Shown here in pieces: positions 9,940 to 53,103 of a DNA stretch of 64,000 nucleotides (positions are counted from its first letter, which is position 1; each line of letters opens with the position of its first letter). The stretch is from an uncultured virus (IMG/VR IMGVR_UViG_3300007960_000019) (taxonomy: Duplodnaviria > Heunggongvirae > Uroviricota > Caudoviricetes). The stretch lies in the IMG/VR virus record IMGVR_UViG_3300007960_000019; one strand, given 5' to 3'. The notes below the pieces were generated by a model, which saw only the letters and a list, made by a program, of their open reading frames with translations, did not search any database and had not been told where the DNA came from. Made by a program: the position numbers and the translations under genes.

Positions 9940-10424
9940 TTAAACTAGGAAAATTGAAATTAACAAGTTTGTTTAAGCAAGTTACCTCAGAATCTAAGCA
10001 AGTTAAGGCTTACCATATTGCTCGTGAGCACTTTGGGTTAAGAGAGATCCGTGGTAATGGTCATGAGCCGAAGATTCTGGAGTTCTTTAATGCTGTAGGA
10101 CACTCTTGGGTAAAAGACGACGAGACTGCTTGGTGCGCAGCTTTTGTCGGAGCTTGTCTTGAAGCAGCAGGTATTGTTAGTTCCCGCCGGTTGAACGCTC
10201 GTTCCTACCTAGAGTGGGGTGACCCTGTGTCCTCACCTAAAGAAGGTGATATTGTAGTATTCTGGCGAGGCTCCCCAAAAGCTGCCACAGGACATGTCGC
10301 ATTTTTCGTCAAGCATAATGACAATGGTGATTTTATTGTTCTAGGCGGAAATCAGTCCGATATGGTAAACGAGCAGGTCTACGCTAAAGAACGTGTTCTT
10401 AGCATTCGTCGTTATCCAGAATAA
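9936..10424 (+). CDS. endolysin, TIGR02594-type NlpC/P60/CHAP-like peptidase
   Basis: DDETAWCAAFV, ARSYLEWG, GDIVVFWRG, GHVAF and LGGNQ motifs. Confidence 0.85.
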   Translation: MIKLGKLKLTSLFKQVTSESKQVKAYHIAREHFGLREIRGNGHEPKILEFFNAVGHSWVKDDETAWCAAFVGACLEAAGIVSSRRLNARSYLEWGDPVSSPKEGDIVVFWRGSPKAATGHVAFFVKHNDNGDFIVLGGNQSDMVNEQVYAKERVLSIRRYPE

Positions 10425-10440
10425 ATACGACGTACTAATG
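10423..10440 (+). promoter_or_regulatory. phage RNAP promoter, class A copy 1
   Basis: AAATACGACGTACTAATG, 13/18 identical to T7 TAATACGACTCACTATAG; repeated five times, always intergenic. Confidence 0.85.
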
Positions 10441-10542
10441 ATAAAGAGGACAGATGTCTGGAAGTTGTAAGCCAGTAATATCTGACTGTCCTCCCAGAGG
10501 GGTTAGTTTTCCTTAAGCTAACCCCTTATTCTTATAGATAAA

Positions 10543-10560
10543 AAATACGACGTACTAATG
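10543..10560 (+). promoter_or_regulatory. phage RNAP promoter, class A copy 2 (upstream of portal)
   Basis: AAATACGACGTACTAATG, exact copy 120 bp after copy 1. Confidence 0.85.
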
Positions 10561-10674
10561 AGGGGTATCCCAAGATAATTCTATAAGGTTAATATTAAGG
10601 ATACCTTAAAGGGTATCTTTAATACTACCCTTGTGTAGTATGTTTTATTAATAATAGATATAGAAAGGTATGTT

Positions 10675-12246
10675 ATGGCTAAACTACGTAAGCCTTCTAA
10701 AGCTGTAAAAAGGTCCGTTTCAGATCCTTCTGATTCTTATCACAGCCTGAAACCCCTGTGGAAAAAATCCCGATCAGTGCTCAACGGGGACGCACATACT
10801 AAAGCTCACGATGAATTTCTCGATGTTTATAATTACAGTAACCTGCTAATTCCTTTTTCTCCTTCTATGACTCAGCAACAGTATGAGTTCTATAAGTCAG
10901 AATCAGAACTACCGGGCCTAACAGCTCAGTACTGCAAGGTGTTGATTAGCGCACTTCTACGTAAGAAGTCATTACTTACACTTCCTGATGGTCTTCCAGA
11001 AGATGCCCTCGATTGGATCGAGAAAGATTTTACAAGTGATGGTCAGTCATTGTTTAACTTCCTCGACAGTGCTATCTGGGAAGAACTTCAAACTTCCCGT
11101 GCTTGGGTTTATGTAGATTATCCCACGTTCTCCGATGAAGAGTTAGAAGGGATGTCTACAGAGGAGCGTATGTCTATCTCCCCTTATCCTGTATTACTAA
11201 AAGCAGAGAACGTCATTAATACACAGATTAAAGTACATCCAGTGACTAAACAGCGTACTCTGACCCGTTTCGTTACGAGGTATATTGCTGAAAACTACTC
11301 TAAGGAAAACCCTTGGCATCCTGATTATGTAGATACTGTTGCTGACCACTACTTAGATGAGGCTGGGCGTTTAGTTATTGACTACTACCAGAAGAAAGAT
11401 CTCACTGGTGAAGTAGAAGTAGTTAATGGTGATGTAACCCAAGACTACAAAGACATGCAGGTAACCGAAGCTGGCTTCGAGAAGTTTAATACGGTATATC
11501 CAACCATGTTTGGTGAACGTGTATGGCGTATCCCTGCGTGGCCCCTAAATGGTCAACTAGAACCTGTAGAGCCTGTACTAATGCCTCTTATTGATAGAGA
11601 AGTGGCGCTATATAACAAGGTATCACGTCGTAACCATCTCCTTTATGGTGCTGCGACTTATACTCCAGTGGTACAGTCTGATATGTCAGATGAAGAATTT
11701 GAGGAGCTAGTTAATGCTGGTCTCGGCACTTGGCTACGTGTTCGTAAAGACGAATCAATTTCTGTTCTTGAAACGCCAACAAGTGCCCTAGCTGACATGG
11801 ATCGAGCAATCCAAACTACTGTTGAAGAGATGGCTAGAATGGGGATCCGTATGCTTTCCCCCGAACAAGCAGCCTCTGGTGTCGCTCTAGAGATTCGTAA
11901 TGCATCCCAGACAGCACAGCTAGGTGCTCTTAATGCTAAGATCTCTTCTACTATGGAAGAAGTTATTGCTTTTATGCTTAACTGGAAGTATGATTCTGAC
12001 TTTAGCGGTAATGATGTTAAGTTCCAACTAAGCTCTGACTTCTCTGCTCTTGTTGGTGGTGAAGGGGCAATGCGTCTCGTCTCAGAATGGTACCAAAGTG
12101 GTATTATTTCTCGTGAGACCTTTATTTCTATTGCGAAATATAACGACTTCTTGCCAATGAACTATGATGATGAGGCGGCGATTCAAGCTATCCAAACTGA
12201 TCCTATCATCAATCAGACTCCTGACGACAACGTTCAAGTGGAGTAA
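10675..12246 (+). CDS. portal protein
   Basis: 523 aa, first gene of the head cluster; SGVALEI and ISRETF motifs resemble siphovirus (DUF4055-like) portals. Confidence 0.8.
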   Translation: MAKLRKPSKAVKRSVSDPSDSYHSLKPLWKKSRSVLNGDAHTKAHDEFLDVYNYSNLLIPFSPSMTQQQYEFYKSESELPGLTAQYCKVLISALLRKKSLLTLPDGLPEDALDWIEKDFTSDGQSLFNFLDSAIWEELQTSRAWVYVDYPTFSDEELEGMSTEERMSISPYPVLLKAENVINTQIKVHPVTKQRTLTRFVTRYIAENYSKENPWHPDYVDTVADHYLDEAGRLVIDYYQKKDLTGEVEVVNGDVTQDYKDMQVTEAGFEKFNTVYPTMFGERVWRIPAWPLNGQLEPVEPVLMPLIDREVALYNKVSRRNHLLYGAATYTPVVQSDMSDEEFEELVNAGLGTWLRVRKDESISVLETPTSALADMDRAIQTTVEEMARMGIRMLSPEQAASGVALEIRNASQTAQLGALNAKISSTMEEVIAFMLNWKYDSDFSGNDVKFQLSSDFSALVGGEGAMRLVSEWYQSGIISRETFISIAKYNDFLPMNYDDEAAIQAIQTDPIINQTPDDNVQVE

Positions 12247-12308
12247 TATTATGCCCTGAGTACGGCAAAAAAACTGCTCACCACACTAACTACTCATGGG
12301 AGTACTAG

Positions 12309-15300
12309 ATGGCTAACGTTAACGATAAAATCTTTGACCGTATTGTAGAGCATATGTCAGATGTAAGACTCTATGAAGAAGGCCAACAAATCCTACAGCG
12401 ACGTATTATTAGACGACACCGTGAGAATTTGACAAAACTTCTGAAGAAGGATATAAGGTCTGATGTTACACGGGAAGTAAATCGATTCGCTAAAGAATTA
12501 AATAGCTCCACTACTAATAGTATTAAGGAGTTCTCAACTTCCCAGATTGATTTCCATACGGACAATCTATACCGTGAAGTTAAAGATTTCTATAAAATGA
12601 GGAAGCCTACTACAAAAGAGCTTCTATCAGAGATTACTGGTACCGGAATGAGGGGTGAGAAATCCCTTTCAGGTAATGTCAGGAATATTGCTTCTGGGGA
12701 ACTTATACGAATCCAGTCAAGGGTAAGGTCTGGTTTGGCTTATAATAAGTCACCAAAAGAGATTATTGCTGATGTCATGAAAACGACTAAGCTGACAGAA
12801 CATCAGGCGTCTACACTGACAAGAACAGCTATTACGTCTACTCAAACAGCAGCACTTAATAAGGTTGTTCAGGAGAACAAAGATGTAATCAAGGGCTATA
12901 TGTTTACGGCAATCTTGGACTCCCGTACAAGCCCTATCTGCTCACACCACAATGGTAAAATCTATGATGTAGATGACAATCGCTTTATGCCACCTCTGCA
13001 TTGGAACTGTCGTTCAAGTTTAGTACCTGTTCTAAAGAGCAAGGAAGAGCTGGCGAATACAGGAAATGATAACATTTCTGTATTTGGTGAACAGCATACA
13101 CTGAAGAACGTTGGTCTTGTAGAACGCAGAGTTGAAAAGTTTAATCCCTCTGTGGTATACCATGAATTCTATGAAGATCCTGAGACTATCGCTTGGGCTA
13201 AGAAAAACAACTTTATTCTGAGGAAGGGCGACCTTAGCTATGCTGAGAAGGATGCTCTTGTTAAGAAGTATGGCGGTGCTACGGAACAATTTCACCGTGA
13301 CCGTGAAGCTTTCATGTATAACCAGATGAAGAATGCTGACAAAAATGTTCGTACTGCTTTTATAATGGGTAACGACCATGCTTTCGATTCAGGTTCTGTT
13401 ATCTTTAAAGATAAGTCCTTCCGTAAGGTAGATTATCGTGGTAAGGTGTTTGAAGCATCTACTCGTATTCAGAAGTCTAAACTGGAGAAGATAGCAGACA
13501 CTTACTTTAATGGGCTATCTGCTAAGATTCAGACTTTCACTGAGTGGCTTCGTAAACAAGACTTCGACACTATGGTGAAGATGCTAGGTAGTGAAGAACG
13601 TGCTAAACTATTTAAAGGTGGTGCACTTGAAGCTCGTGAGTTTATAACACCAAAAGGGACTGTCCTATCTATCCAAGCCCTTCGTGCTCGGGCGAGTAAG
13701 ATAACTTCTGTGTTTCGACCCCGTCAGGTTGTTAAGGATACTAACCTCCGTGTTGAAGCCCGTAATCCAAACTCTCTGCTCAACAACCCTAAACATCAAT
13801 CTGATCTAGAACAACTCTTTATTTCAGATGCAGATGACTACAACTCAGCCTTTGCTCTTACAGATTTCAAAGGTACTAGTCTTGTAGGTAAACAAGCATC
13901 CCGTAGACGAATGAGTAATCAGTTCGATGAACGCAACTTCATTACTGATACCTTTACTGGTGAGGTTCGGAGCAATCTAACTTACGAGCCGGACTTCAAC
14001 CTGTTTCAAGAACGACTAGACTTTATGAAGTCTGCTAAAGACTTGACAAGTGAGCAGAAGGATTTTATTGAGGGTCTAGCTATTAAGCTGACTGACAAAG
14101 TGTCAGTAAATCAGCAAATTGTAGCTGTTGAGAATCTTCGTGTCACTTTCCAGCGATATAATAGCAGTAAGGAGCCTTGGTCTGATCTTGCATCCGTAAT
14201 CCGAGCGGAAAATAGGTTCTCTGTTCAGAACGTATCACGTCTGCTAGATGTTCGTGCAAGGAAACGTGCAGAGTTGTTCGGTGGGTTTGTGTCTACAGGT
14301 GATAAACCTAAGATGCAGATTATGGGTAAGTACTATAATGTAGAAGACCTAGTCAACGATCAGCTATCAAACCAGCGTTTTATCGACAACTGGCGAGCTA
14401 CAGAAGGTACTAAGCTAGCTAAGAAGGTTTACTACAGAGGTCGTGCCCCCATCAATGCGTATACTCAGGCTATCATTCGTAGGTATCCGGATAAGGAAAA
14501 GCTCATTGATAAGATGCTAGATAACGTCATACCGTTCCGTAAACAGTATAAGGCATACCTTAAGTGGAAAAATAAACCGCCTTCTGATGACTGGATTACT
14601 AGGCAAATTGCCAAGTTCCGTGAAGGTGTTCGTCAGATCTATGACTTAGAGTGGCTCTATGCTAAACAGCGTCCGACTTCTAAGCTTATGGACGACAAGG
14701 TTCTTCATACCACTACAAAGGCTCTTAAGCTTGTAGCCTCTGGTCGTGCTACAGATTATGACTCCCTAGCTATCAATATTGGTAAGATGTATCATCAGGA
14801 TCTGGGGGATTTAAATCCACTTGCTACGTATACCTTAAAGGATTACCACAAAGAAGGATCTAAGATTCTGGAGTTTATGCGTGAGCAAAACCTAATCAGG
14901 GTTAGTTTCCGTGGTAAGACTCGTAGAGGTGTGTGGGATGTTGATACAGGTCGAGCGTCAGGTGGTTGGGCTGATATGATTACTCGGGAAGTTCAGGTAA
15001 TTGATAAAACTCTTCTCAAGCTGCAAGAAGCAGAATTGAAGGCTACTTATGCTCGCCGTTTTGGTGTCGTATATGACAGAGATCGGCTTTATGTAAAAGC
15101 AGGTAATAAAGAGTTCTTTGACGCTAGAGGTAACAAAACAGGTATCCCTATTATCTCTGCGGATAAGTACCCTGACTATGATCCTAACCAGATCGATGCT
15201 GAAATGGCAAAGATGATGAATCATGTTACTAGCGTGAACTACCGCGTTGATGACGAGTTCTTCGATTTTATGGATGACGTTGTACGATTCCGTGACCCCC

Positions 15301-17084
15301 GTGGTAACACGAAGTACTATGATGAGCTTAATGAGTTCCGTCATGAAATTATCAATCGCGGTGAAGCTGGTTACGGTTTAATGGCTACTGCTAAGTATCA
15401 TCGCCAAAGAGGTAAATCCTTCAAGACTGATGTGTTTATTGACTCCCGTGGTCGTGTGTACCATCGTGGTTATCTTACACCTACAGGTGGCGAAATGGTT
15501 CGTCCATTCCTGAACTCTGATAAAGCTGTAGCTATACAGATGGCTGATGTTAATGAACTCCGTATCCAGCTTGGGGCGATGATTGGTCCCGGTACTGAGG
15601 CACTAACTCAAAGTGGTCGTCTTGATATCTTTAAGCGCAACGAGTCTAAGATTCTTGAGCTTGCTGGTTTGCTACAAGCTAAGACACAACGTGATCGCCG
15701 TATCCGTGAATTTCTTGAGCACCCTTTGATTAAGGGTCTTGAAGGTAAAGAAGTTCCAAAGATGGCTCGTTTTGCTTTAGAGTATAAGCGTATTCATGAC
15801 CATGTAGGTGGTAACTTCTCTAATACTGCACTATTGAAAACTTATAAAACCCGTTTGATGATCGAGAATGACGCCTCTTCTAGTGGTGCTCAAATTATCG
15901 GTCTATCCACGGGCGATAGGGCCATTGCAGAGGCTTCAAACGTCGTTGCTACAACCCGTAAGAATCGTCTTTATGACCTTGTTGCTCAGGACACAGTTAA
16001 TGACCCAGAGTTCCTAAAGATTCCTGCTCTACGTAATGCAGGCTTGACTTGGGAAGACTTAGCTAAAGGTGCGAAAGCGCAGAACATGGTGACATTCTAC
16101 GGTGCTGGGGAAGCCACAAAGACCGCAAAAATCGCTAATAAAATCTCAGGTATTCTTGAGAAGAAGGGCTATGCTACAATTACTAAAGATAACGTCAATG
16201 AAATACTTCGTATCGTTGACGGTAAAATCAAGACAGCCGATAAACTCGGTGCTAACGCTACAGTCGATTCACTAAAGAGCTTCCGAAGTGAACTGATTGA
16301 AATGGTAAATGGAAATACCCCGGTTGGACGTAACTTACTAACTATGGCGAGAGACCTTCACCCGGATGTAGAAGACTTCGTTCTGAAGGTTTCAAACTCT
16401 CGTGTTGGGCTTGTAGGGCCGAAAGACTTCGAAGAAATTTCAAGGATTATGTCTAAGCACCTCTCTCAACGTGCTCCTGTTACTGACGAATTCATTAACT
16501 TCTGGAAATCAGCAGCTAAAGTATACGTTAAGGAGACCGAGAAGGTGGATATCCCTTGGGTGACGTTTGATGGTAAAGTCATGATGCAAAGATATCGTGG
16601 CAAGAGTCAAACTCGCATTGACTTTACAGACCCAGTTACTGGGCGTAAAATTGCAAACATCTATGAAGGTACTGTTGAGGATGGTTTACTGCGCGGTAAA
16701 CACGCTTTCCAAGATGCTTCTATCGGCCTAGGTGTTAACGGAAACCACAGCAATGACGCTGTGATCGTGCGCAGGTTCCATCTTTGGGGGAGAGATAACG
16801 GAGTGGATACTGGAACCATCCATGACGCTTTTTTCACCAATCTAGCTGACGCACAAAAAGCTAAAGACGCCTTGAGAACCATCTATGCAGATGCTCTTGA
16901 AGGTGACACAATCAGGAAGACTCTCTACGCATGGCGTAAAGAAGGCCTAACTAAATCAGCGTATGACGCTCTCATTGCTGATGCAAAGAAACGTGGTCTT
17001 ATTGACCCACCAAACAAACTAACCCGTGCTGATATCCTTGCCCCTATTAAGGAAGGATACGATTGGTATGGGATTGGTCCTTGA
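12309..17084 (+). CDS. MuF (SPP1 gp7-like) minor head protein fused to a T7-family single-subunit RNA polymerase (putative virion RNAP)
   Basis: N-terminal AILDSRTSPIC...PPLHWNCRS (MuF). C-terminal IDSRGRVY (~aa1045), ENDASSSGAQ (motif A, ~aa1188), KAQNMVTFYG (motif B, ~aa1256), TIHDAF (motif C, ~aa1506). Confidence 0.88.
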   Translation: MANVNDKIFDRIVEHMSDVRLYEEGQQILQRRIIRRHRENLTKLLKKDIRSDVTREVNRFAKELNSSTTNSIKEFSTSQIDFHTDNLYREVKDFYKMRKPTTKELLSEITGTGMRGEKSLSGNVRNIASGELIRIQSRVRSGLAYNKSPKEIIADVMKTTKLTEHQASTLTRTAITSTQTAALNKVVQENKDVIKGYMFTAILDSRTSPICSHHNGKIYDVDDNRFMPPLHWNCRSSLVPVLKSKEELANTGNDNISVFGEQHTLKNVGLVERRVEKFNPSVVYHEFYEDPETIAWAKKNNFILRKGDLSYAEKDALVKKYGGATEQFHRDREAFMYNQMKNADKNVRTAFIMGNDHAFDSGSVIFKDKSFRKVDYRGKVFEASTRIQKSKLEKIADTYFNGLSAKIQTFTEWLRKQDFDTMVKMLGSEERAKLFKGGALEAREFITPKGTVLSIQALRARASKITSVFRPRQVVKDTNLRVEARNPNSLLNNPKHQSDLEQLFISDADDYNSAFALTDFKGTSLVGKQASRRRMSNQFDERNFITDTFTGEVRSNLTYEPDFNLFQERLDFMKSAKDLTSEQKDFIEGLAIKLTDKVSVNQQIVAVENLRVTFQRYNSSKEPWSDLASVIRAENRFSVQNVSRLLDVRARKRAELFGGFVSTGDKPKMQIMGKYYNVEDLVNDQLSNQRFIDNWRATEGTKLAKKVYYRGRAPINAYTQAIIRRYPDKEKLIDKMLDNVIPFRKQYKAYLKWKNKPPSDDWITRQIAKFREGVRQIYDLEWLYAKQRPTSKLMDDKVLHTTTKALKLVASGRATDYDSLAINIGKMYHQDLGDLNPLATYTLKDYHKEGSKILEFMREQNLIRVSFRGKTRRGVWDVDTGRASGGWADMITREVQVIDKTLLKLQEAELKATYARRFGVVYDRDRLYVKAGNKEFFDARGNKTGIPIISADKYPDYDPNQIDAEMAKMMNHVTSVNYRVDDEFFDFMDDVVRFRDPRGNTKYYDELNEFRHEIINRGEAGYGLMATAKYHRQRGKSFKTDVFIDSRGRVYHRGYLTPTGGEMVRPFLNSDKAVAIQMADVNELRIQLGAMIGPGTEALTQSGRLDIFKRNESKILELAGLLQAKTQRDRRIREFLEHPLIKGLEGKEVPKMARFALEYKRIHDHVGGNFSNTALLKTYKTRLMIENDASSSGAQIIGLSTGDRAIAEASNVVATTRKNRLYDLVAQDTVNDPEFLKIPALRNAGLTWEDLAKGAKAQNMVTFYGAGEATKTAKIANKISGILEKKGYATITKDNVNEILRIVDGKIKTADKLGANATVDSLKSFRSELIEMVNGNTPVGRNLLTMARDLHPDVEDFVLKVSNSRVGLVGPKDFEEISRIMSKHLSQRAPVTDEFINFWKSAAKVYVKETEKVDIPWVTFDGKVMMQRYRGKSQTRIDFTDPVTGRKIANIYEGTVEDGLLRGKHAFQDASIGLGVNGNHSNDAVIVRRFHLWGRDNGVDTGTIHDAFFTNLADAQKAKDALRTIYADALEGDTIRKTLYAWRKEGLTKSAYDALIADAKKRGLIDPPNKLTRADILAPIKEGYDWYGIGP

Positions 17085-17857: not shown

Positions 17858-17884
17858 TATAATCCTACATAAAGGAATTAACAA

Positions 17885-19003: not shown

Positions 19004-19020
19004 CTTAATAGGAGGAACTA

Positions 19021-19527
19021 ATGGCACTAGTTCTTAATACGAACAGCTATGTGACTGTCGCAGAAGCTGATACTTACTTTGAGACTCGTATTGACAGTGC
19101 TAATTGGACTGACGCTACTGATGAAATCAAAGAACAGGCGCTTGTCACAGCTACACAACTAGTTGATGATAACGCTTGGATTGGTTCTGCTGTTAGTTCC
19201 TCCCAAGCTCTTGCATGGCCTCGCACTTCCGCAATCTACTACGATGACCGACTCGGTCAACAGATTACTATTGCGGAAGACGAGGTTCCATCTCGTGTTA
19301 CAGTGGCTGTATATGAGCAGGCTCTTCACTTGATTAACAATGAAGACCTTCTCTCAGGAACAACTCAAACTTTTGAGAGCATCTCTGTAGGTTCAATCAG
19401 CCTATCAGACTCAAATGGTGACGTTACAAAGACCTCTATTAGACCTTCAGTTGTCATGAAACCTATCCGCCCTTTAATCCGGCGCGGGTCTGGTGGAATG
19501 GGTACAGGGTGGTGGAGGGCTAACTAA
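19021..19527 (+). CDS. head-tail adaptor
   Basis: NSYVTVAEADTYF...QALAWPR motif; position after MCP. Confidence 0.8.
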   Translation: MALVLNTNSYVTVAEADTYFETRIDSANWTDATDEIKEQALVTATQLVDDNAWIGSAVSSSQALAWPRTSAIYYDDRLGQQITIAEDEVPSRVTVAVYEQALHLINNEDLLSGTTQTFESISVGSISLSDSNGDVTKTSIRPSVVMKPIRPLIRRGSGGMGTGWWRAN

Positions 19528-26282: not shown

Positions 26283-26303
26283 AATTGTACGGGCTTTGTA
26301 ATC

Positions 26304-26326
26304 GAGAAATTGGAGCATCTATAATG
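26304..26326 (+). promoter_or_regulatory. candidate early promoter, class B copy 1
   Basis: GAGAAATTGGAGCATCTATAATG; shares GCATCTATAATG with 26697-26708. Confidence 0.4.
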
Positions 26327-26634: not shown

Positions 26635-26662
26635 GGGATTCCCTTCGGGGAGTCCCTTTTTT
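26635..26662 (+). terminator. intrinsic terminator with UUCG tetraloop
   Basis: GGGATTCCC-TTCG-GGGAGTCCC followed by TTTTTT. Confidence 0.85.
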
Positions 26663-26684
26663 ATCAAAAATGGATCAAAAAAGT

Positions 26685-26708
26685 GAGAAAATTAAGGCAT
26701 CTATAATG
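26685..26708 (+). promoter_or_regulatory. candidate early promoter, class B copy 2
   Basis: GAGAAAATTAAGGCATCTATAATG just after a terminator and ~37 nt before an SD-led ATG (26745); no recognisable -35 box. Confidence 0.45.
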
Positions 26709-26744
26709 ATACAACAGTATCAGTCAGCAACAATGGAGTTTCCC

Positions 26745-26930
26745 ATGCTGGACAAGGTTCGTTCGTTCTTCTACAACAATATCGGGATACACTTTGATGG
26801 TGTATTCTGGTATAATCTTGTTGTAGAGTCTGATGAAGCTTATGACAAGCTCTTAGCCGACTATGATGCTCTTGAAAAAGAGTACCTAGAGGTTAAGGCA
26901 CAACTGATCAGGCTTCTGTCTGAGCAGTGA
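26745..26930 (+). CDS. small early hypothetical protein
   Basis: GGAG SD before ATG 26745. Confidence 0.5.
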   Translation: MLDKVRSFFYNNIGIHFDGVFWYNLVVESDEAYDKLLADYDALEKEYLEVKAQLIRLLSEQ

Positions 26931-27000
26931 ACTACTATTACCTCCGCCCTTCGGGGCGGGGGCTAAGAATTTAACTTTTTTTTTCGCTAGAAAGGAGTCC

Positions 27001-27339
27001 GTGATGGAACAAGTACTTGTCAGGTACTACAGGGGTTGCTCCCTCAAAGAAGCTGTCGACCTTAAAATTGCCATTGATGATGGTAACTTTAAGGCTCGGC
27101 GTTCTCATACTTGGTGGACTGACTCTTTCGAGAAAGCCGCCATGTATGCTCGCCGACATGGTAATGGTGCTGTGGTGGTGGTTGAAATGGATGAACAGCC
27201 GAAGGGCATTCAGAACTATTTCAGCGTTGGCCTCGGCGATTCCGCTGCGACCACTATTCGCCAGTGGAAACTTCCCACTGACTACTTCGTCGGAACTTTT
27301 AGTTGCACTGCCGAAGAAGTGAAGATCGAAGTAGTGTGA
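27001..27339 (+). CDS. small protein with ADP-ribosyltransferase-like motif spacing
   Basis: YYRG ... WWTDS...AAMYA ... GAVVVVE; SD AAGGAG. Confidence 0.4.
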   Translation: MMEQVLVRYYRGCSLKEAVDLKIAIDDGNFKARRSHTWWTDSFEKAAMYARRHGNGAVVVVEMDEQPKGIQNYFSVGLGDSAATTIRQWKLPTDYFVGTFSCTAEEVKIEVV

Positions 27340-27419
27340 GAGATACCCCACCCCTTCGGGGGTTGGGGTTCCTCTAAGCCCTATTTTTTTCGTAGCATCA
27401 CAAAGTAAAGGACACTCTA

Positions 27420-28058
27420 ATGGAAAACCTTAAGGCTACACTTGAAGCTCATATTAAATGGTTAAACGGTGAAGAAGGTGGTGAGAGGGCTAACCTCACT
27501 GGGGCTGACCTCTCTGGAGCTGACCTCTTCGAGGCTAACCTCTGTTTGGCTAACCTCGCTGAGGCTAACCTCGCTGGGGCTGACCTCTCTGTGGCTGAAC
27601 TCTTCGGGGCTTCCCTCCGTGATGCTAACCTCACTGGAGCTGACCTCTCTGGTGCTAACCTCCGCCGGGCTAAACTCACTGGGGCTAAACTCACTGGGGC
27701 TGACCTCTTCGAGGCTAACCTCCGTTTGGCTTCCCTCACTGGGGCTAACCTCGTTGGGGCTGACCTCCGCCGGGCTGACCTCTCTGGGGCTAACCTCACT
27801 GGGGCTGACCTATGTGGGGCTTACCTACATGGGGCTTACCTACGTGGGGCTGACCTCACTGGGTCTAACTTCTTTGAGGCTAGCCTCTTTGAGGTTAACC
27901 TCCGTGAAGCTAACCTCCGTGAGGCTGACCTCACTGAGGCTGACCTCCGTTGGGCTGACCTACGGGGGGCTTCCCTCACTAGGGCTGACCTCTCTGGGGC
28001 TGACCTCCGTTGGACTAACCTCACTGGGGCTGACCTTAATGGGGTTAAAAATGAATAA
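27420..28058 (+). CDS. pentapeptide repeat protein
   Basis: About 37 tandem A(D/N)LxG-type repeats after the N-terminal LEAHIKWL.GE.GGERANL; 15-bp periodicity in the DNA. Confidence 0.95.
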   Translation: MENLKATLEAHIKWLNGEEGGERANLTGADLSGADLFEANLCLANLAEANLAGADLSVAELFGASLRDANLTGADLSGANLRRAKLTGAKLTGADLFEANLRLASLTGANLVGADLRRADLSGANLTGADLCGAYLHGAYLRGADLTGSNFFEASLFEVNLREANLREADLTEADLRWADLRGASLTRADLSGADLRWTNLTGADLNGVKNE

Positions 28059-28069
28059 AGGATTATGCT

Positions 28070-28300
28070 ATGATCTGGTCTTTTACTCTCGGGTTTACAA
28101 TAAGGGTGCTTATAATAGTTTTGACAGCAGCTGTACTGGGAAAAAAACTAGGGACACCACACCCGATATTCGGGCTAGCTGCCGTCTACTATTTCTATAC
28201 TAAAGAGGGGTCTACAGACCCTATGTTCATGCTGGGGTTTATGATTGTTGACTTCCTCCCTCTGCTAGCTAGTCGGGGAGGAAAAGAAAAGAGTAGATAA
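28070..28300 (+). CDS. small membrane protein
   Basis: Hydrophobic ORF with SD AAGGA. Confidence 0.45.
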   Translation: MIWSFTLGFTIRVLIIVLTAAVLGKKLGTPHPIFGLAAVYYFYTKEGSTDPMFMLGFMIVDFLPLLASRGGKEKSR

Positions 28301-28750
28301 GAACTTCACCCATATGCTAACGAAAAGAGGAATATACGATGTACGACTACGATGTTTTCGTGGAGTTTATGATGTCTTGGAAACACTATGAGACTACTGA
28401 TTTTGTAGATCCCTTTTTCTGTGTAGATGGGGAATACTGTAATAGTGGTCTAGAAATTATCTACTAAGAATGACACTAGAACCAATATAGCTGTGTCTGA
28501 CTTTAGTAAAGATTGCTTTTGGTACCAACCCAGTAATATTGTCGAATGACATAGAAAGGAAATAAGAGAATGGCAAAGAAAGACCTAACCTTCGCCTCAT
28601 TGGTTGAACAAATTGATGCCAAATGGGGACACACCTATCTGGACCCCGGTGAGGATCTTCTTGCTGTAGAAATCAATGAGATTTTCGACAGCCTTGAAGA
28701 TATGATCAATACTGAGCAAGACAACTGATCTTACATAAGGACAAAACAAA

Positions 28751-28978
28751 ATGCGTAACCACAAACTCGCTGACGATTACTTTCCCTCCAGCTACACCCT
28801 CAAAGAAGGTTCTCCTTACCGGCATATTGACAACCGTGATCGCGTAGTTGCAGCCTCTTTGGTTGTGAACAAAACATTCACGATCAAGGAAACAGCTTAC
28901 CGCTACGGCTGTTGTGAAAACACTATCCGCAATTGGATCAAAACACTGGACAACAACAATCCACACATGGACGGTTAA
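28751..28978 (+). CDS. small helix-turn-helix protein
   Basis: TIKETAYRYGCCENTIRNWIK HTH pattern. Confidence 0.7.
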   Translation: MRNHKLADDYFPSSYTLKEGSPYRHIDNRDRVVAASLVVNKTFTIKETAYRYGCCENTIRNWIKTLDNNNPHMDG

Positions 28979-29169
28979 GAACATATTAGATTGTCGCCCC
29001 CGCCCTTCGGGGCGGGGTTACTTATCCTTCCTATTTTTTTTTAAAGGAGTTAACATGATGACAATATACCTCTTGGCGCTGCTAATCGCAACGCTAAAGG
29101 GCTAAGTTTGTCATCACTCAAACCTCACAAAGGAATACATACGTATACTGTCCGCAAGAGGAGTGATAA

Positions 29170-31557: not shown

Positions 31558-31575
31558 TAATACGACGTACTAATG
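31558..31575 (+). promoter_or_regulatory. phage RNAP promoter, class A copy 3 (upstream of SSB)
   Basis: TAATACGACGTACTAATG, 14/18 identical to the T7 consensus. Confidence 0.85.
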
Positions 31576-31634
31576 ACCAAAGGGATCACCTAGGTCTTAT
31601 ACACTATAGAGAACATACCAAAAGGAACAATATT

Positions 31635-32178: not shown

Positions 32179-32207
32179 GGGAATCCCTTCGGGGGGTTCC
32201 CATTTTT
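32179..32207 (+). terminator. intrinsic terminator with UUCG tetraloop
   Basis: GGGAATCCCTTCGGGGGGTTCCC followed by ATTTTT. Confidence 0.75.
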
Positions 32208-32254
32208 ATTGACCTTGGTGGTGGTGATATAAAACCCGAAAGGAAGTACTTAAT

Positions 32255-42186: not shown

Positions 42187-42204
42187 AAATACGACGACCT
42201 AATG
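42187..42204 (+). promoter_or_regulatory. phage RNAP promoter, class A variant copy 4 (upstream of exonuclease)
   Basis: AAATACGACGACCTAATG, two substitutions relative to the other copies; intergenic. Confidence 0.75.
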
Positions 42205-42246
42205 ACTAAATGGGTCCGTTAAATATAATTATTAAGGAGGTCTATT

Positions 42247-47516: not shown

Positions 47517-47719
47517 ATATTATCAAATGGAGACATGTATTAATGAAATCACATCGTTATAAGACAAAGTACGGTATTCACCCAACCCTAGAAATCACTG
47601 CAAAGCTCCTAGGAATTAGTATTGAACGAGCAGAGGATTCTATTATCCGAAACACTGGTGAAATTAAGGTAGTATCTCTATAACTATAGCCTGAATAAGA
47701 TTCCAAACAACCAGAGGAA

Positions 47720-48427: not shown

Positions 48428-48431
48428 ACCC

Positions 48432-48875: not shown

Positions 48876-48877
48876 CC

Positions 48878-49465: not shown

Positions 49466-49894
49466 ATGGCTATCGTAACAGTACTTTGGTGCTTTGTTGC
49501 GCTATCGATGATCACTCTCACATACACTTCTGAAACCTACAGGATCATCAAACTCATTGCACTTCCAGTTTTTCTAATTGCTTCTTTAGTGTCTTACATC
49601 TTTTATCTAGAAGACCGAGGAAATCCTTCTGTAGGATACATCCCGGAAAACTCACAGTATGTTTTCCACCGGGTTACTAACGAGGAGACTATTGTGATCT
49701 GGATTACAACAGAAAAAGGAGACAGGCTCTATGTCATTCCCTACTCACGGGAGTCCGCGAAAGAACTAGAGGGGGCAAGGGAGAAGTCCGAGGAAGGGGA
49801 ACTTCAACGGGTAGAAAACAAAGGAGATAACTCTCAAGTGAAAACTGATGATTGGGAACCTCCTGATCAAAGTGGTCCGCCAAACAAGGGATGA
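49466..49894 (+). CDS. membrane protein
   Basis: Two N-terminal hydrophobic helices; coupled to the upstream gene. Confidence 0.55.
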   Translation: MAIVTVLWCFVALSMITLTYTSETYRIIKLIALPVFLIASLVSYIFYLEDRGNPSVGYIPENSQYVFHRVTNEETIVIWITTEKGDRLYVIPYSRESAKELEGAREKSEEGELQRVENKGDNSQVKTDDWEPPDQSGPPNKG

Positions 49895-50877: not shown

Positions 50878-51481
50878 AACCGAAGAAGAAGAAGAGACCA
50901 ATACCACCCCTAAACCTGAAGAAGTGAAGATGCCTCCCTTTGGAGAGGTTATTAGGAATAATGGTTTTCTCCGACTCTCAGGAGAGTTTGATAAAGATAA
51001 CATCGATCCTATTGTAACGAGTATTTACGACTACAACTTAATGGATGAGGAGGTTCGTCCAGAACGACTAACACTCATTATTAACAGCCCCGGTGGACGA
51101 GTAGACTACTGCAAGATGCTACTGGATGCAATGTGGATGTCTGACATTCCTGTTGATACTCTGGCCTCTGGTATTGCTATGTCTTGCGGTGTAATTACCC
51201 TGATGGCTGGTGCCCACCGTATGGCTACCCAGAACAGTGAGATTATGTCACACCAGTACGCAGGAGGTACAAGGGGTAAGGAACATGAGATCTACGGACG
51301 TATGCGTTCACATGAGATCATGTCCCGTTGGATTGAGGATCATTACAAATCCTGCACAGGACTAAGCCGGAAGAAGATCCGGAAAGAACTTCTATCACCA
51401 ACAGACTTCTTCATGACAGCAAAGGAAGCGAAGAAGTACAACATCATTGATGAAGTTATCAAAACTAAAAGGAACGTATAG
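50861..51481 (+). CDS. ClpP-like protease subunit
   Basis: IINSPGG, G.AMSCG (Ser), MSHQ (His), DFFMTAKEAKKY.IID (Asp). Confidence 0.85.
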   Translation: MKKLSETEEEEETNTTPKPEEVKMPPFGEVIRNNGFLRLSGEFDKDNIDPIVTSIYDYNLMDEEVRPERLTLIINSPGGRVDYCKMLLDAMWMSDIPVDTLASGIAMSCGVITLMAGAHRMATQNSEIMSHQYAGGTRGKEHEIYGRMRSHEIMSRWIEDHYKSCTGLSRKKIRKELLSPTDFFMTAKEAKKYNIIDEVIKTKRNV

Positions 51482-51779
51482 ATGGAAAAATTTGTTGGGA
51501 TGGCTGGGTATGTTATCGGTTATACAGTCGCTATTGCACTCAAGCTAGCCTACCTATGGGCAGGCATCCAAGTACTTCAGTATTTTAATCTAATCTAAGA
51601 GGCTATAACAATGTCAGATATCGAACTAGACCTAGAAGATATTACGGAAAACCTATTCGCAGACTTCGTGAATAACTATGAGTTAGACCCTGAAGGGTCG
51701 ATTAATGATATGCTCTTTGAGTTCTTCGCAGAAGGATTCATTGCAGCATTGAATATGGCTGAAGAATACGGAGAAAACG

Positions 51780-52184
51780 ATGGGTCGGAGGAAGAAGAAG
51801 AAGATTCTTCGGGAGATCACGAAGAAACTTGAAGAACACGAGCCGGTGTTCCGGGCGAGAATTGTAGCTGCTATCGTTCATAAAGGCAAGATAGTATCTT
51901 TTGGTAAAAACCAAAACAAGACTCACCCGGACGCGGCCTTCTATAGTAAACATGATGAGGCTATCTACCTTCATGCGGAGGTGGACGCTATCAATAAAGC
52001 CAAAAAGAAACTCAGTGCAGAAGAACTATCAAGCTCTAGTACTGAGCTTTACATAGTTAGGATGAAACAAAATGGAACTCTGGGACTATCTCTTCCTTGT
52101 AGCGGTTGTAGCCGTTGCATTAGTGATCACGGTATTGACAGAGTAGTCTACTCTAATAGCTACGGAGAAATGGAATGTATTTAA
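51780..52184 (+). CDS. second cytidine/deoxycytidylate deaminase-family protein
   Basis: A.IV..G.IVS.G.N..KTHP, LHAEVDAI and PCSGC motifs. Confidence 0.8.
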   Translation: MGRRKKKKILREITKKLEEHEPVFRARIVAAIVHKGKIVSFGKNQNKTHPDAAFYSKHDEAIYLHAEVDAINKAKKKLSAEELSSSSTELYIVRMKQNGTLGLSLPCSGCSRCISDHGIDRVVYSNSYGEMECI

Positions 52185-52381
52185 TTATTGGTAGGGAGAA
52201 CTGCCCCTACTGTAAACTAGCTCAGAACCACTTAGAGTCAAGGAAGGTCCCTTATATCTATAAAGATATTACTGATGTAGTGTGGAAAGAACTTCTAGTT
52301 AAAGACATAGAGGCTAAAACAGTACCTCAGATCTTCCGGCTAGTCGGTGGGTATGATGAACTATTAGAGGTAGTATGGTAG
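52175..52381 (+). CDS. glutaredoxin
   Basis: CPYC, TVPQIF and GGYDEL motifs. Confidence 0.9.
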   Translation: MYLIIGRENCPYCKLAQNHLESRKVPYIYKDITDVVWKELLVKDIEAKTVPQIFRLVGGYDELLEVVW

Positions 52382-52806
52382 TGAACGCAGAAGATAATAA
52401 ACGAAAACCGGGGCGACCTAAAGGTTCTAAAGACCCCCGTAAGATCAAGCTAAAACCCTCCCCGAAGACAGCTAAGGAGGACTACGCCAAGTACTATAGT
52501 GAGCTAGGTATAGTCGCTATCTATGGTGTAGATGACTTCACTAAAGAACTACTCTTCTACATGTGGAATGACCCGTCTCAAGAATTCGTGGCCTGTGACC
52601 CTGTCGAGCAACACCTAGCAAACCTAACCCGAGAGGTTGGTAATAGGGCTAATTCAATGTACAGGTATACCGCAGTACACCACTCTGGGTTTATTGAGTC
52701 AGGCTATTATCCTGTAGTCGTTGTATCAAAGAAGTATAAAGAGAAAGTAATGGAACTACCTAATCCACATTCTGTAAAGATTATCTGTCTGGAAGACTAC
52801 AAATGA
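52375..52806 (+). CDS. hypothetical protein with AT-hook-like N-terminus
   Basis: RKPGRPKGSK. Confidence 0.5.
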   Translation: MVVNAEDNKRKPGRPKGSKDPRKIKLKPSPKTAKEDYAKYYSELGIVAIYGVDDFTKELLFYMWNDPSQEFVACDPVEQHLANLTREVGNRANSMYRYTAVHHSGFIESGYYPVVVVSKKYKEKVMELPNPHSVKIICLEDYK

Positions 52807-53085
52807 CCGAGTACTTTGTCCCACTGAACCCTAACAAAGAACCCTTTTGGGTTAAAATCGAACTACAGTACGATGACTACCTACTTCTTGAGTCTGGACA
52901 GAAGCTCTACTGGCATACCAACTACAAGTACTATCGTGGTTACATCGATGGTGTAGAGGGGTATATCGTCTAAATTAACTAACCGTCCTCACTTATGCTC
53001 CTTAATAGGGGTGTAGGTGGGGGCGGTTAGGGACCCCCTTTTATTTTTTTTTGTAGACAAAACTATCATAAAAATAAGGGGTAAA

Positions 53086-53103
53086 AAATACGACGTACTA
53101 ATG
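53086..53103 (+). promoter_or_regulatory. phage RNAP promoter, class A copy 5 (start of late/packaging region)
   Basis: AAATACGACGTACTAATG after a hairpin and T-tract. Confidence 0.85.

Follow-up and report, generated by a model that had tools for sequence, protein, structure and literature searches.

Among described phages, DSS3_VP1 and DSS3_PM1 (Naomviridae, Noahvirus) come nearest to the DNA analysed here, a stretch of 64,000 nt (IMG/VR IMGVR_UViG_3300007960_000019) that is called the window throughout. Both have a window-like gene order on one strand and encode a free T7-like RNA polymerase (RNAP) together with a second RNAP fused to a MuF head domain (MuF-RNAP), which is about 60% identical to that of the window over the aligned part and 66% over the polymerase domain. 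In the database records this protein bears no annotation other than head morphogenesis or minor head protein. In the founding paper, the main text does not contain the term 'RNA polymerase', and 'promoter' and 'transcription' are used once, about an intron (PMC8323127).

Further phages invite comparison. T7 (Autographiviridae) resembles the window in its RNAP homologue, its promoter (13/17 positions), the tandem promoters directly after the RNAP gene, and the use of one enzyme for replication and structural operons. However, the window represents a siphovirus of about 64 kb, its RNAP has 727 instead of 883 amino acids, a second, head-fused RNAP is present, and its early promoter is not readily recognised as one of the sigma-70 type.

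In N4 (Schitoviridae), the virion RNAP gp50 acts first, followed by RNAPII and then by the host RNAP, which is used for the late genes, and the early promoters are DNA hairpins upstream of +1. An earlier note on the window had proposed an N4-like cascade built from two T7-family enzymes. The logic holds, in that a virion-borne T7-family polymerase would be followed by a second one, but membership does not: N4 is a podovirus, and the window has no giant stand-alone vRNAP, no upstream hairpin promoter (its conserved hairpin lies at +1) and no visible third stage served by the host RNAP. In the passages of PMC5512222 on gp50, the protein is stand-alone, with domains for injection and encapsidation and with a metallopeptidase fused to it, and is not a MuF fusion.

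The Thermus phage P23-45 is, like the window, a siphovirus with an RNAP fused to a structural protein: according to the relevant parts of PMC10770324, its tape-measure-fused virion RNAP transcribes the first genes, including that of a second, free phage RNAP, and two distinct DNA motifs direct the two enzymes. As described there, the two enzymes are homologous to the two-barrel RNAPs of cells, with the tape measure as fusion partner, whereas the RNAPs of the window are single-subunit T7-type enzymes and the partner is a MuF head protein. Host-independent transcription by virion and non-virion RNAPs is also described, in the sections of PMC5449584, PMC9209446 and PMC7598289 concerned, for the Bacillus phage AR9 and the phiKZ-like jumbo phages, but with multisubunit enzymes and genomes above 200 kb; the genome of AR9 contains uracil, as is stated for cultured Naomviridae in the pertinent part of PMC8323127. 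In the literature searched, no description was found of a relay between a free and a MuF-fused T7-type RNAP.

Genome organization

Judged from its sequence, the window covers most of the genome of a siphophage that is Naomviridae-like and syntenic with the roseophage DSS3_VP1, an assignment made because the gene order matches those of DSS3_VP1 and DSS3_PM1. The shared order runs from terminase, PhoH, tail, lysin, portal, a large 'head morphogenesis' protein, capsid and tape measure through small genes to RNAP and replication. Every gene lies on one strand, the non-coding share is about 4%, and the tRNA of DSS3_VP1 and DSS3_PM1 is absent from the window. The source of the window is freshwater metagenomes.

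Class A promoters and the free RNA polymerase

The following features are relevant to the first promoter class:

10423..10441, plus strand: class A copy 1, exact match, predicted +1 G 10440; upstream member of a tandem pair ahead of the portal operon
10440..10536, plus strand: candidate 97-nt structured RNA from copy 1, with a terminator-like hairpin (10498-10526) and a T-rich tail at its end
10543..10561, plus strand: class A copy 2, exact match, predicted +1 G 10560; heads the portal to tape-measure genes (portal, MuF-RNAP, scaffold, capsid, tail tube, tape measure)
19006..19023, plus strand: weak class A look-alike, three mismatches; overlaps the RBS and start codon of ORF 19021
29170..31353, plus strand: free T7-like RNA polymerase gene, 727 aa (PF00940, E 7e-77); proposed class A reader
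31558..31576, plus strand: class A copy 3, exact match, predicted +1 G 31575; between the RNAP and SSB genes, heads the first replication operon (gp2.5-like SSB through DNA polymerase)
32179..32210, plus strand: intrinsic terminator after the SSB gene
42187..42205, plus strand: class A copy 4, variant with two mismatches, predicted +1 G 42204; heads exonuclease, primase-helicase and RNR genes
53086..53104, plus strand: class A copy 5, exact match, predicted +1 G 53103; heads terminase, fibre, tail and lysis genes

The motif WAATACGACGTACTAATG occurs exactly at 10423, 10543, 31558 and 53086 and with two mismatches at 42187. Allowing up to three mismatches, six matches were found versus 0.12 expected, a number reached in 0/100 shuffles. 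With the next A included, a scan of both strands for the resulting 18-mer gave four sites at zero mismatches, one at two, one at four and three at five, and the gap between two and four mismatches therefore leaves five clear copies. The look-alike at 19006, which the earlier note did not list, is probably a chance match. All five copies lie in non-coding DNA, that at 10423 sharing two bases with the CHAP lysin stop codon, and the mismatch scan of the window revealed none in the early block at 26.3-31.4 kb. Thus, the claims that near-T7 promoters at these five positions are intergenic, lie on the plus strand and head operons, and that the early block is devoid of them, proved correct. So did the assertion that a copy follows the 727-aa RNAP gene by about 200 bp, as in T7: the distance is 205 bp, while the T7 record has AATACGACTCACTATAG at 10 and 85 bp past its RNAP gene, a sequence with which the 17-mer of the window is identical at 13/17 positions.

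Several copies have notable surroundings. The tandem pair before the portal gene is common to DSS3_VP1 and the genomes G002 and G004. The candidate RNA from copy 1 has an MFE of -35.8 kcal/mol (z -4.99), equalled by 0/200 shuffles. The variant at 42187 is also found in the near-identical fragment G001, and the copy at 53086 comes after a hairpin and T-run, with a leader of about 300 nt downstream.

The free RNAP is homologous to T7 RNAP (E 2e-53), contains HDSFG and ends in ...DYAFA; it is 46.7% identical to the RNAP of DSS3_VP1 and DSS3_PM1 and has 320 homologous clusters at E <= 1e-50. Relatives of the window carry a repeated intergenic plus-strand motif at matching spots: twice in tandem ahead of the portal gene, once between RNAP and SSB and once before the exonuclease operon; DSS3_VP1 and DSS3_PM1 likewise have class A sites at matching places, including a cluster before the portal gene. 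The RNAP-SSB spacer contains a promoter-like site in 65/71 related loci. The seven nucleotides from -12 to -6 form a lineage-specific core, with 19 distinct cores among 39 distinct promoter/loop pairs; for example, DSS3_VP1 has ...GGGTGCGTTAAAGA versus ...CGACGTACTAATGA in the window, and the specificity loops of the two RNAPs differ, too. This loop is among the more variable stretches of the free RNAP (entropy 1.83 versus 1.19 for the domain, n = 116). Promoter distance and loop distance were correlated (partial Mantel r 0.554, reached by 0/2000 permutations) after control for the remaining RNAP C-terminus, shared ancestry being a factor that affects all covariation and conservation statistics given here. 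Because the syntenic promoter core covaries with the specificity loop, the assignment of class A to the 727-aa RNAP, already made in the earlier note, is well supported by comparison.

The MuF-RNAP fusion

The second polymerase is encoded in the late head operon:

12309..17084, plus strand: MuF-RNAP fusion gene, 1591 aa, with an N-terminal MuF/SPP1-gp7 head domain and a C-terminal T7-type RNA polymerase; proposed virion RNAP

PF04233 matches residues 135-238 and PF00940 residues 1177-1548, and PHROG places the protein in its head morphogenesis and RNA polymerase families. The T7 motifs A, B and C (palm) and the RGRVY stretch have counterparts in it, and the catalytic motifs are intact. An AF2 model (pLDDT 87) has the T7 RNAP fold, with T7 RNAP as best PDB match (E 4e-16) and further matches to mitochondrial RNAPs; N4 mini-vRNAP is not among the Foldseek matches listed for this model within ranks 1-50, all of which are T7 or mitochondrial RNAPs. 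From motifs and model, it is credible that the protein is an active T7-type polymerase.

The protein has 480 homologous clusters, and in each relative compared its conservation exceeds that of the free RNAP. It is present in 12/16 long contigs that bear the class B element described below, and in 4/4 of those at least 90% complete. The passages of PMC5512222 devoted to MuF domains describe them as parts of the phage head to which effectors are fused, and delivery of these effectors into the host as probable. A role of the MuF-RNAP as a virion enzyme is thus plausible.

The class B element and the reading of the early block

The region between the tape-measure and free RNAP genes contains:

26283..26299, plus strand: third conserved early-region motif, AATTGTACGGGCTTTGT, directly 3' of the tape-measure stop codon
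26303..26326, plus strand: partial class B look-alike, the exact 12-mer GCATCTATAATG with a degenerate upstream box; overlaps the RBS and ATG (26324) of the HNH endonuclease gene
26635..26662, plus strand: intrinsic terminator (hairpin and T-run) at the end of the late/HNH transcript, directly ahead of class B
26677..26709, plus strand: predicted class B promoter, full copy: A-run, GTGAGA box, spacer and GCATCTATAAT, predicted +1 G 26708
26707..26722, plus strand: hairpin at the predicted class B transcript 5' end, TGATAC-AACA-GTATCA
26733..29105, plus strand: small genes of the early block, including a pentapeptide-repeat protein (27420-28058) and a small HTH protein (28751-28978)

Class B is a two-box motif of about 33 nt, of which the window has one full copy, situated directly past the tape-measure gene and a terminator at the head of the early block. 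The layout of terminator followed by class B is found in many relatives. About 32 nt are common to the window and DSS3_VP1 at the syntenic spot (the core and its place are the same in DSS3_PM1), and class B also occupies this spot in G002, G003 and G004. In the five longer genomes it is confined to the interval between tape measure and RNAP, except for one partial copy in DSS3_VP1. A wider collection comprised 120 sites (97 distinct) in 80 viral contigs and was near-invariant, 17 bases being conserved by construction as the collection pattern fixes them; the bases left free by the pattern are likewise conserved. Among loci with enough flank, a tape-measure homologue lies upstream in 44/64 and an RNAP homologue downstream in 40/51, never in reversed order or on the reversed strand.

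Since the early block lacks class A and is headed by class B, another enzyme, present from the start of infection, must read it, which supports the earlier note on this point. Two candidates are to be considered for class B, the MuF-RNAP and the host RNAP. The latter is a real candidate and the main rival: every class B site contains a perfect TATAAT, which could serve as a -10 box, with an A-rich stretch upstream. In a T7-style scheme, host sigma-70 RNAP would read class B and make the free RNAP, which would read class A, and the MuF-RNAP would be employed otherwise, in pulling in the DNA, in priming or for a minor transcript. The early genes of T7 are indeed transcribed by the host RNAP, and the best sigma-70-like match of the region (10/12; TTGTAA and TATAAT at 18 nt) is the partial copy at 26303-26326. 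However, no TTGACA-like box is present 16-18 nt upstream of the full copy in the window, and the full copies lack a -35-like hexamer at this distance; in a sub-case of the scheme, a phage factor on the upstream GTGAGA box would substitute for the -35 contact. Furthermore, the early region shows no enrichment of sigma-70-like sites (13 versus 10.3 expected), and class B is conserved over about 30 consecutive positions, far beyond the need of a sigma-70 promoter, in phages from freshwater and marine sources with 38-47% G+C and proteins that are 30-70% identical.

The hairpin also bears on the choice of enzyme. In class B, 54/97 sites have a hairpin of 5 bp or more from offset -1 and 46/97 from offset 0, compared to 1-8/97 for most other offsets, and the stems vary between phages with pairing kept; in class A, it begins exactly at the predicted +1 G in 33/39 sites. 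In both classes, a covarying hairpin from the G after TAAT fits a +1 placed as in T7 promoters and not as in sigma-70 promoters: in class B it starts at the T/G right after TATAAT, whereas a sigma-70 start about 7 nt further downstream would cut it. Lastly, under the T7-style scheme the head-fused RNAP, conserved and catalytically intact as it is, would have no template, and we regard this scheme as unlikely. The comparisons thus support class B as an early promoter-like element that is conserved throughout the family.

It would also be conceivable, with a clearly smaller probability, that an injected MuF-RNAP reads other signals, and that class B serves the host RNAP or another purpose. One such signal could be AATTGTACGGGCTTTGT (17 nt), which is conserved at 40 sites in 28/80 related loci, 36/40 on the plus strand, often with an RBS and ATG directly after it, but is absent from DSS3_VP1, G003 and G004, all of which have a MuF-RNAP. 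The N4 virion RNAP uses hairpin promoters, and the early block contains three elements of GC-hairpin, spacer and long T-run (about 26944-26981, 27349-27390 and 28998-29042), which recur in the early blocks of many relatives; these hairpins, however, have stable RNA-type tetraloops and follow genes, as processing or termination sites do. No early element other than class B was found in all five genomes compared. That the repeats are not promoters at all, but regulator binding sites, packaging or replication signals or remnants of mobile elements, is very improbable. The partly palindromic class A would fit such a reading, but it matches the T7 promoter at 13/17 positions and covaries with the specificity loop, every copy is intergenic, on the coding strand and at the head of an operon, hairpins begin at the predicted +1, and terminators precede several copies.

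A proposed relay of two T7-type polymerases

We therefore consider it rather probable that two single-subunit T7-family enzymes act in a two-step relay, the MuF-RNAP on class B and the free RNAP on class A. In the first step, the MuF-RNAP, synthesized late from class A promoters and packaged via its MuF/SPP1-gp7 domain into the head, would enter the next cell with the DNA and start at class B (26677-26709, +1 G 26708). The transcript would span the early block (26.7-31.5 kb), in which the gene for the free 727-aa RNAP is the last. In the second step, the free RNAP would recognise the five class A copies (AATACGACGTACTAATG, with the final G as +1) and drive the replication and nucleotide operons (31558, 42187) and the structural and lysis operons (53086, 10423/10543). 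The late operons include the MuF-RNAP gene, so that the loop would be closed. Transcripts of both classes would start with a short hairpin from +1.

The MuF-RNAP would be injected, and its reading of class B is inferred from parsimony and parallel conservation. The specificity-loop counterpart of the MuF-RNAP is more conserved than the domain average (0.91 versus 1.11), in line with an invariant promoter. EBPR siphovirus 1 counts against the relay: its MuF-RNAP is distant (34%), but the first 50 kb of its 54.5-kb partial record yielded neither the class B motif nor a homologue of the free RNAP, and the annotation of the remainder shows none either. As far as can be seen from the sequence, the window gives no sign of a need for the host RNAP or of a late stage served by it, and the cascade would be wholly phage-encoded. 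If this is true, the phage may need little from its host to carry out its entire gene programme.

Genome organization and affiliation of the window phage

The credible genes of the window are all located on the + strand according to the ORF list, and scans against Pfam and PHROG yielded the following gene map:

53.4-64 kb, then 0-10.4 kb, + strand: terminase, fibres, PhoH, distal tail and host-specificity proteins, holin, CHAP lysin
10.7-26.3 kb, + strand: portal, 1591-aa fusion of a MuF head protein and an RNA polymerase (MuF-RNAP), scaffold, capsid, tail genes, tape measure
26.3-31.5 kb, + strand: HNH gene, small genes, pentapeptide-repeat protein, 727-aa RNA polymerase (free RNAP)
31.6-52.8 kb, + strand: SSB, nucleotide metabolism, family A DNA polymerase, exonuclease, primase-helicase, RNR, others

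Module for module, this gene order agrees with that of the cultured Naomviridae roseophages DSS3_VP1 and DSS3_PM1, with which the gene content is also shared. The protein identities are 25-75%, and the window phage therefore probably belongs to a different genus or a sister group. No near-identical cultured phage was found by a near-DNA search of the phage collection; freshwater metagenome runs contain DNA that is near-identical to the window. Neither tRNAs nor Rfam families were found within the window.

Cultured Naomviridae carry dU in place of dT in their virion DNA, according to the main text of the founding paper (PMC8323127). The window encodes a MazG-like pyrophosphohydrolase beside a dCMP deaminase (41270-41969) and a second dCMP deaminase (51780-52184), and no thymidylate synthase was detected among the ORFs scanned. 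This gene set fits a dU-containing genome, for which these would be candidate genes; despite this, ordinary freshwater DNA metagenomes cover the phage well. The stretch 48171-51481 encodes cargo that is unusual in a phage, namely a MotA/ExbB-like protein, a ClpP-like protease and a full-length SbmA/BacA-like inner-membrane transporter (E 2e-123). The fibre genes (60643-63756 and 1-86) contain several internal tandem or dispersed repeats with 51-nt, 147-nt and 210-nt spacing, and nucleotides 1-86 resemble 63914-63999 at 73%; these are repeated fibre domains and not a terminal repeat.

Two polymerases of the T7 family

The 727-aa protein is, by sequence, unambiguously a T7-family RNA polymerase. 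It matches PF00940 with an E-value of 7e-77 and T7 RNAP itself with 2e-53, the palm motifs DGSNNGVQH and HDSFG and the C-terminal ...AFA being aligned, and its nearest relative is the RNAP of DSS3_VP1/DSS3_PM1 (46.7% identity).

The gene for MuF-RNAP directly follows the portal gene in the head operon. Its product contains a MuF/SPP1-gp7 domain (PF04233, residues 135-238, E 8e-16), has a PHROG head morphogenesis match (E 9e-48) and is thus a head protein of the MuF/SPP1 gp7 type. A weaker PF00940 match (E 1e-7) covers residues 1177-1548, and counterparts of the T7 motifs (IDSRGRVY, ENDASSSGAQII, MVTFYGAG and IHDAF) are invariant in 20 homologues of 44-77% identity. The AlphaFold model of residues 950-1591 is confident (pLDDT 87, pTM 0.83), and in a Foldseek search of the PDB it retrieved T7 RNAP as the top match (E 4e-16, TM 0.59-0.62), followed by mitochondrial RNAPs. 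Profile, catalytic motifs and fold thus all place the C-terminal part in the T7 family.

Homologues of MuF-RNAP form 480 clusters at E <= 1e-3, almost all of 1450-1600 aa with both domains, and those of the free RNAP form 320 clusters at E <= 1e-50. The names given to the MuF-RNAP clusters are limited to 'SPP1 gp7 family head morphogenesis protein' and 'minor capsid protein'. Among the cultured phages of the collection, only DSS3_VP1/PM1 (66%) and, as a distant form (34%), EBPR siphovirus 1 have the polymerase domain of MuF-RNAP; in the latter, the gene is split by an HNH gene (L231, 29081-29761). In DSS3_VP1, the MuF-RNAP is a protein of 1463 aa annotated as 'head morphogenesis'.

The two enzymes differ in conservation. 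Identities to the compared relatives are 65, 72, 58 and 60% for MuF-RNAP versus 52.5, 49.9, 41.8 and 46.7% for the free RNAP. The specificity loop of the free RNAP is more variable than its whole polymerase domain (entropy 1.83 versus 1.19, 116 homologues), and the counterpart of this loop in MuF-RNAP is more conserved than the domain average (0.91 versus 1.11). An attempt to map the loop of the free RNAP onto the promoter-contacting residues of T7 RNAP was abandoned, since the HMMER alignment and a 2-residue shift give different equivalences; because of this ambiguity, no residue-to-base assignment is proposed.

MuF-RNAP is a candidate for a virion polymerase that would be injected with the DNA, as suggested by the fusion to MuF and the position in the late operon. 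In the main text of PMC8323127, 'mass spectrometry' is used only for nucleoside analysis and 'proteom' occurs only in proteome-tree contexts.

Class A promoters and their probable cognate polymerase

The earlier note had described a T7-like 18-mer promoter motif (class A), and the copies proved to be real: four are exact (10423, 10543, 31558 and 53086) and one, at 42187, has two mismatches. As had been claimed, all five are intergenic and on the + strand, in a window that is ~96% coding according to the ORF list; none lies within 26.3-31.4 kb, the early block, and the copy at 31558 follows the stop codon of the 727-aa RNAP by 205 bp, close to the proposed ~200 bp. In the T7 record, AATACGACTCACTATAG is found 10 and 85 bp past the RNAP gene. 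The likeness to T7 was also borne out, as class A shares 13 of 17 positions with the promoter taken from that record and has the same layout, i.e. an AT-rich upstream part, a specificity part and a TA-rich stretch before the +1 G. The motif is repeated on the coding strand before operons, with five copies.

At most three mismatches are found in six matches, compared with 0.12 expected from shuffles. A census of the 18-mer including the next A gave four sites with no mismatch and one with two, and then, beyond a gap, one site with four and three with five mismatches. A match at 19006 was rejected as a sixth promoter; it covers the RBS and start codon of the ORF at 19021 and is probably due to chance.

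Related phages have their own versions of the motif, in which AATA... and T(A/T)A(A/T)GA are kept and the part between them varies. DSS3_VP1 contains a + strand intergenic repeat of its own, ending in ...CGTTAAAGA, with clusters before the portal gene and after the RNAP gene. The long environmental relatives G002, G003 and G004 have a tandem pair before the portal gene, one site between the RNAP and SSB genes and one before the exonuclease operon, with a core that is specific to each lineage. Among the free-RNAP lineages are the CGACGTAC and CCTGACGT types.

Which polymerase reads class A was addressed with 80 viral contigs encoding relatives of the free RNAP, obtained by an alignment query (a search with the single RNAP protein had returned two identical fragments only). 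The C-terminus of the RNAP and the SSB gene could both be located in 71 of the 80 contigs, and in 65 of these 71 the spacer between them contains an AATA(C/G)-N7-T(A/T)A(A/T)GA site. Removal of duplicates left 39 distinct promoter/loop pairs, in which the 7-nt core takes 19 forms. Where the specificity loops are similar, the cores are identical or almost so, and where the loops differ, the cores differ too; the correlation between promoter distance and loop distance is r 0.81 over the 39 pairs. A partial Mantel test controlling for the rest of the RNAP C-terminus, which removes shared ancestry only in part, gave r 0.554, a value reached by none of 2000 permutations. Such a one-to-one pattern over many lineages is expected of cognate pairs and supports the earlier assignment of class A to the 727-aa enzyme. 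On this covariation, class A is very probably read by the free RNAP.

The +1 had been placed at the final G of the motif, and in 33 of the 39 sites this G is the first base of a hairpin of 4 bp or more, versus 1-14 of 39 at other offsets, in support of that placement.

A probable second promoter class in the early block

It had also been proposed that the early block is served by a separate enzyme and promoter. This agrees with the absence of class A from the block and with the identification, just past the tape-measure gene, of a second motif (class B). The 12-mer GCATCTATAATG occurs twice in the window (26315 and 26697) and three times in DSS3_VP1. The full window copy, at 26677-26709, has ~32 nt in common with two DSS3_VP1 copies in the syntenic place just past the tape-measure gene, and these are arranged as an A-run, then GTGAGA and AAA, a short stretch that varies, G(C/T)ATCTATAAT and GA. 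The copy at 26303-26326 is partial and overlaps the RBS and start codon of an HNH endonuclease gene (26324-26629), which lies between the tape-measure gene and the full copy. Homing endonucleases seem to target this transcription machinery, given this HNH gene near class B and the one that splits the MuF-RNAP gene of EBPR siphovirus 1.

In the window, G002, G003, G004 and DSS3_VP1, class B sites are on the + strand and only between the tape-measure and free-RNAP genes, with one partial DSS3_VP1 copy as the sole exception. An exact 23-mer search of viral contigs revealed 10 loci, and a two-box pattern with a free 10-nt spacer revealed 119 stretches, from which 80 loci were fetched. These contain 120 sites, which amount to 97 different ones when the 102-nt context is compared. 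Bases outside the search pattern are conserved as well, namely the upstream A-run, the AAA after GTGAGA, the G(C/T) before ATC and the G following TATAAT. Of the 64 loci that extend at least 1.5 kb upstream of class B, 44 carry a tape-measure homologue on that side, and of the 51 that extend at least 3.4 kb downstream, 40 carry a free-RNAP homologue there; in none of the 80 loci is either gene in reversed order or on the other strand relative to class B. Many sites are preceded by a hairpin plus T-run terminator, in the window at 26635-26662. That class B is an early promoter is well supported by this conservation and placement.

Two other explanations were dismissed. Leaderless translation from the ATG within TATAATG was rejected because early stop codons follow in relatives. 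A clustering of contig ends at class B, which would have hinted at fixed genome ends, was considered and dropped: truncations occur on both sides of the motif and probably reflect assembly breaks at repeats, and in the two records with terminal repeats, class B is found at very different distances from the ends. The near-invariant motif could serve to recognize such genomes in metagenomic data and to determine their orientation.

Predicted start point and probable reader of class B

In 54 of the 97 sites the last T of TATAAT is the first base of a hairpin of 5 bp or more, and in 46 the next G is; at most other offsets, such a hairpin starts in 1-8 of 97. Stem sequences vary from phage to phage and stay complementary (GATAC/GTATC, GATAAA/TTTATC, GAACGA/TCGTTC and others), and the loops have 3 to 8 nt, a variability that argues against a protein operator. 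The same arrangement at the predicted 5' end is common to class A and class B, and an RNA hairpin beginning at the G fits a predicted T7-type start, i.e. a TA-rich stretch followed by the +1 G.

Because the gene for the free RNAP lies downstream of class B, the reader must be present at the start of infection, so that it would be either the host RNAP or a virion protein. Host RNAP could be suggested by the TATAAT hexamer, which all sites contain without mismatch, in part because the search pattern included it, but the full copies have no -35-like box at 16-18 nt. In the full copy GTGAGA is 13 nt from TATAAT, and 26677-26709 falls outside the sigma-70-like sites; a TTGTAA at 18 nt is present in the partial copy only. 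In addition, a sigma-70 start ~7 nt past the hexamer would fall within the hairpin, which argues against it, and the ~30 positions kept across marine and freshwater phages of 38-47% G+C, with proteins 30-70% identical, are much more than a host promoter requires. Reading by host RNAP is the less likely alternative.

MuF-RNAP is favoured because it is the only other polymerase encoded, its gene is in the late head operon beside the portal gene, the counterpart of its specificity loop is more conserved than the domain average, and its sequence is better conserved than that of the free RNAP in all the relatives compared. Furthermore, MuF domains are head components, and fusions to them are thought to be delivered into the host, as stated in the available part of PMC5512222. 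The pairing of a conserved enzyme with an invariant promoter, and of a variable enzyme with variable promoters, would form a coherent, if correlative, picture. On balance, class B is probably read by MuF-RNAP.

Alternatively, MuF-RNAP might read an element of the early block other than class B. This alternative was kept mainly because of two further elements. The first is a 17-nt motif, AATTGTACGGGCTTTGT, located at 26283-26299 directly past the tape-measure stop codon. Of the 80 related loci, 28 contain it, at 40 sites of which 36 are on the + strand. Many of the sites are ~20 nt in front of class B or ~500 nt behind it, and an RBS and ATG frequently come next; the motif was not found in DSS3_VP1, G003 or G004. 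It might act in termination or pausing, be bound by a regulator or be a third promoter. The second element is a composite in which a GC-rich hairpin, in many cases with the loop CTTCGG, is separated by a spacer of 11-17 nt from a run of 7-14 T just before the next RBS, with three examples in the early block of the window:

26944-26981: hairpin/T-run composite
27349-27390: hairpin/T-run composite
28998-29042: hairpin/T-run composite

In relatives, composites account for 23 of the 36 distinct long T-runs downstream of class B and are often right before the free-RNAP gene. As the T-run is displaced, they are not canonical terminators. The elements of the early block may serve termination, processing or pausing.

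Other features of the early block and leaders

The early gene at 27420-28058 encodes a 212-aa protein that consists almost wholly of pentapeptide repeats (Pfam E 8e-64). Pentapeptide-repeat proteins can mimic DNA, and the product may therefore be a candidate for host takeover or anti-restriction.

The 97-nt stretch between the tandem class A copies before the portal gene (10440-10536) forms two strong hairpins (-35.8 kcal/mol, z -4.99); owing to this folding and a terminator-like hairpin at its end, it could be a small RNA. The tandem promoters of G002 also have a hairpin between them. The class A copy heading the terminase operon is preceded by a hairpin and a long T-run and is followed by an ORF-less leader of ~300 nt (53104-53403), which has no Rfam match and could be a packaging signal or a structured RNA.

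Comparison with known systems

The earlier note had proposed an N4-like cascade. The logic, a virion RNAP followed by a second phage RNAP, would be shared with N4 and also with jumbo phages; the features of the N4 virion polymerase gp50 were not found. N4 early promoters are DNA hairpins upstream of the +1, whereas class B is a linear two-box motif with a conserved hairpin at the +1. N4 gp50 is a giant protein that stands alone, with the polymerase in its centre and a zincin-like peptidase region fused to it (available part of PMC5512222), in contrast to the 1591-aa MuF-RNAP, in which Pfam finds MuF and RNAP domains only. The closest siphovirus precedent is P23-45, in which a tape-measure-fused RNAP transcribes the gene of the second phage RNAP (available part of PMC10770324). 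The proposed relay of the window differs from those of P23-45, N4 and jumbo phages in that both enzymes are of the T7-type single-subunit family and the candidate virion enzyme is fused to MuF. AR9, as far as described in the text available, is a notable parallel with two phage RNAPs, because its DNA contains uracil as does that of cultured Naomviridae (main text of PMC8323127).

EBPR siphovirus 1 is distantly related and has genes for a portal, a split MuF-RNAP, a capsid protein and a tape measure. The first 50 kb of its record, which is partial and has 54.5 kb, yielded neither class B nor a free-RNAP homologue, and no free RNAP is annotated in the remaining 4.5 kb. It could represent a one-polymerase form, or the region could be missing from the partial record; for this reason its use as an outgroup was dropped and no absence was concluded.

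The main text of PMC8323127 never mentions RNA polymerase and uses 'promoter' and 'transcription' once only, about an intron; both RNA polymerase and promoters are also unmentioned in the available text of the 2025 single-particle paper. In the literature searched, the only paper retrieved for MuF together with single-subunit or virion RNAPs was PMC5512222, and its available part places virion RNAPs in N4-like phages only. A MuF-fused T7-type virion RNAP together with a free T7-like RNAP in siphoviruses had no prior description in the article texts searched. Relays of a virion and a non-virion RNAP are already known from N4, jumbo phages and P23-45, and the novelty would lie in the MuF-fused T7-type version.

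Implications

A tentative reading, which for now we hold to be possible and not the most probable, is that Naomviridae-like phages, which abound in water, transcribe their whole genome independently of the host via two T7-type enzymes. A capsid-docked 'ignition' polymerase would recognize a single ~33-nt promoter that is almost invariant throughout the group, and the free polymerase and its promoter would have diversified into at least 19 mutually distinct enzyme/promoter pairs. If this is true, these phages hold a large natural set of orthogonal RNAP/promoter pairs, and if the enzymes also prefer uracil-containing promoters, they would be a single-subunit counterpart of the AR9 system. Predictions for the DSS3 phages in culture are the exact +1 positions, early transcription that resists rifampicin, and the presence of MuF-RNAP in virions. 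From the covarying loop/promoter pairs, specificity determinants could be mapped and orthogonal expression parts could be drawn.

The proposed two-polymerase relay of the T7 type would be widespread in environmental phages. The MuF-RNAP group is large, with its 480 clusters beside the 320 of the free RNAP, and it is ecologically relevant because marine Naomiviridae are abundant, as reported in the available part of PMC12669031.
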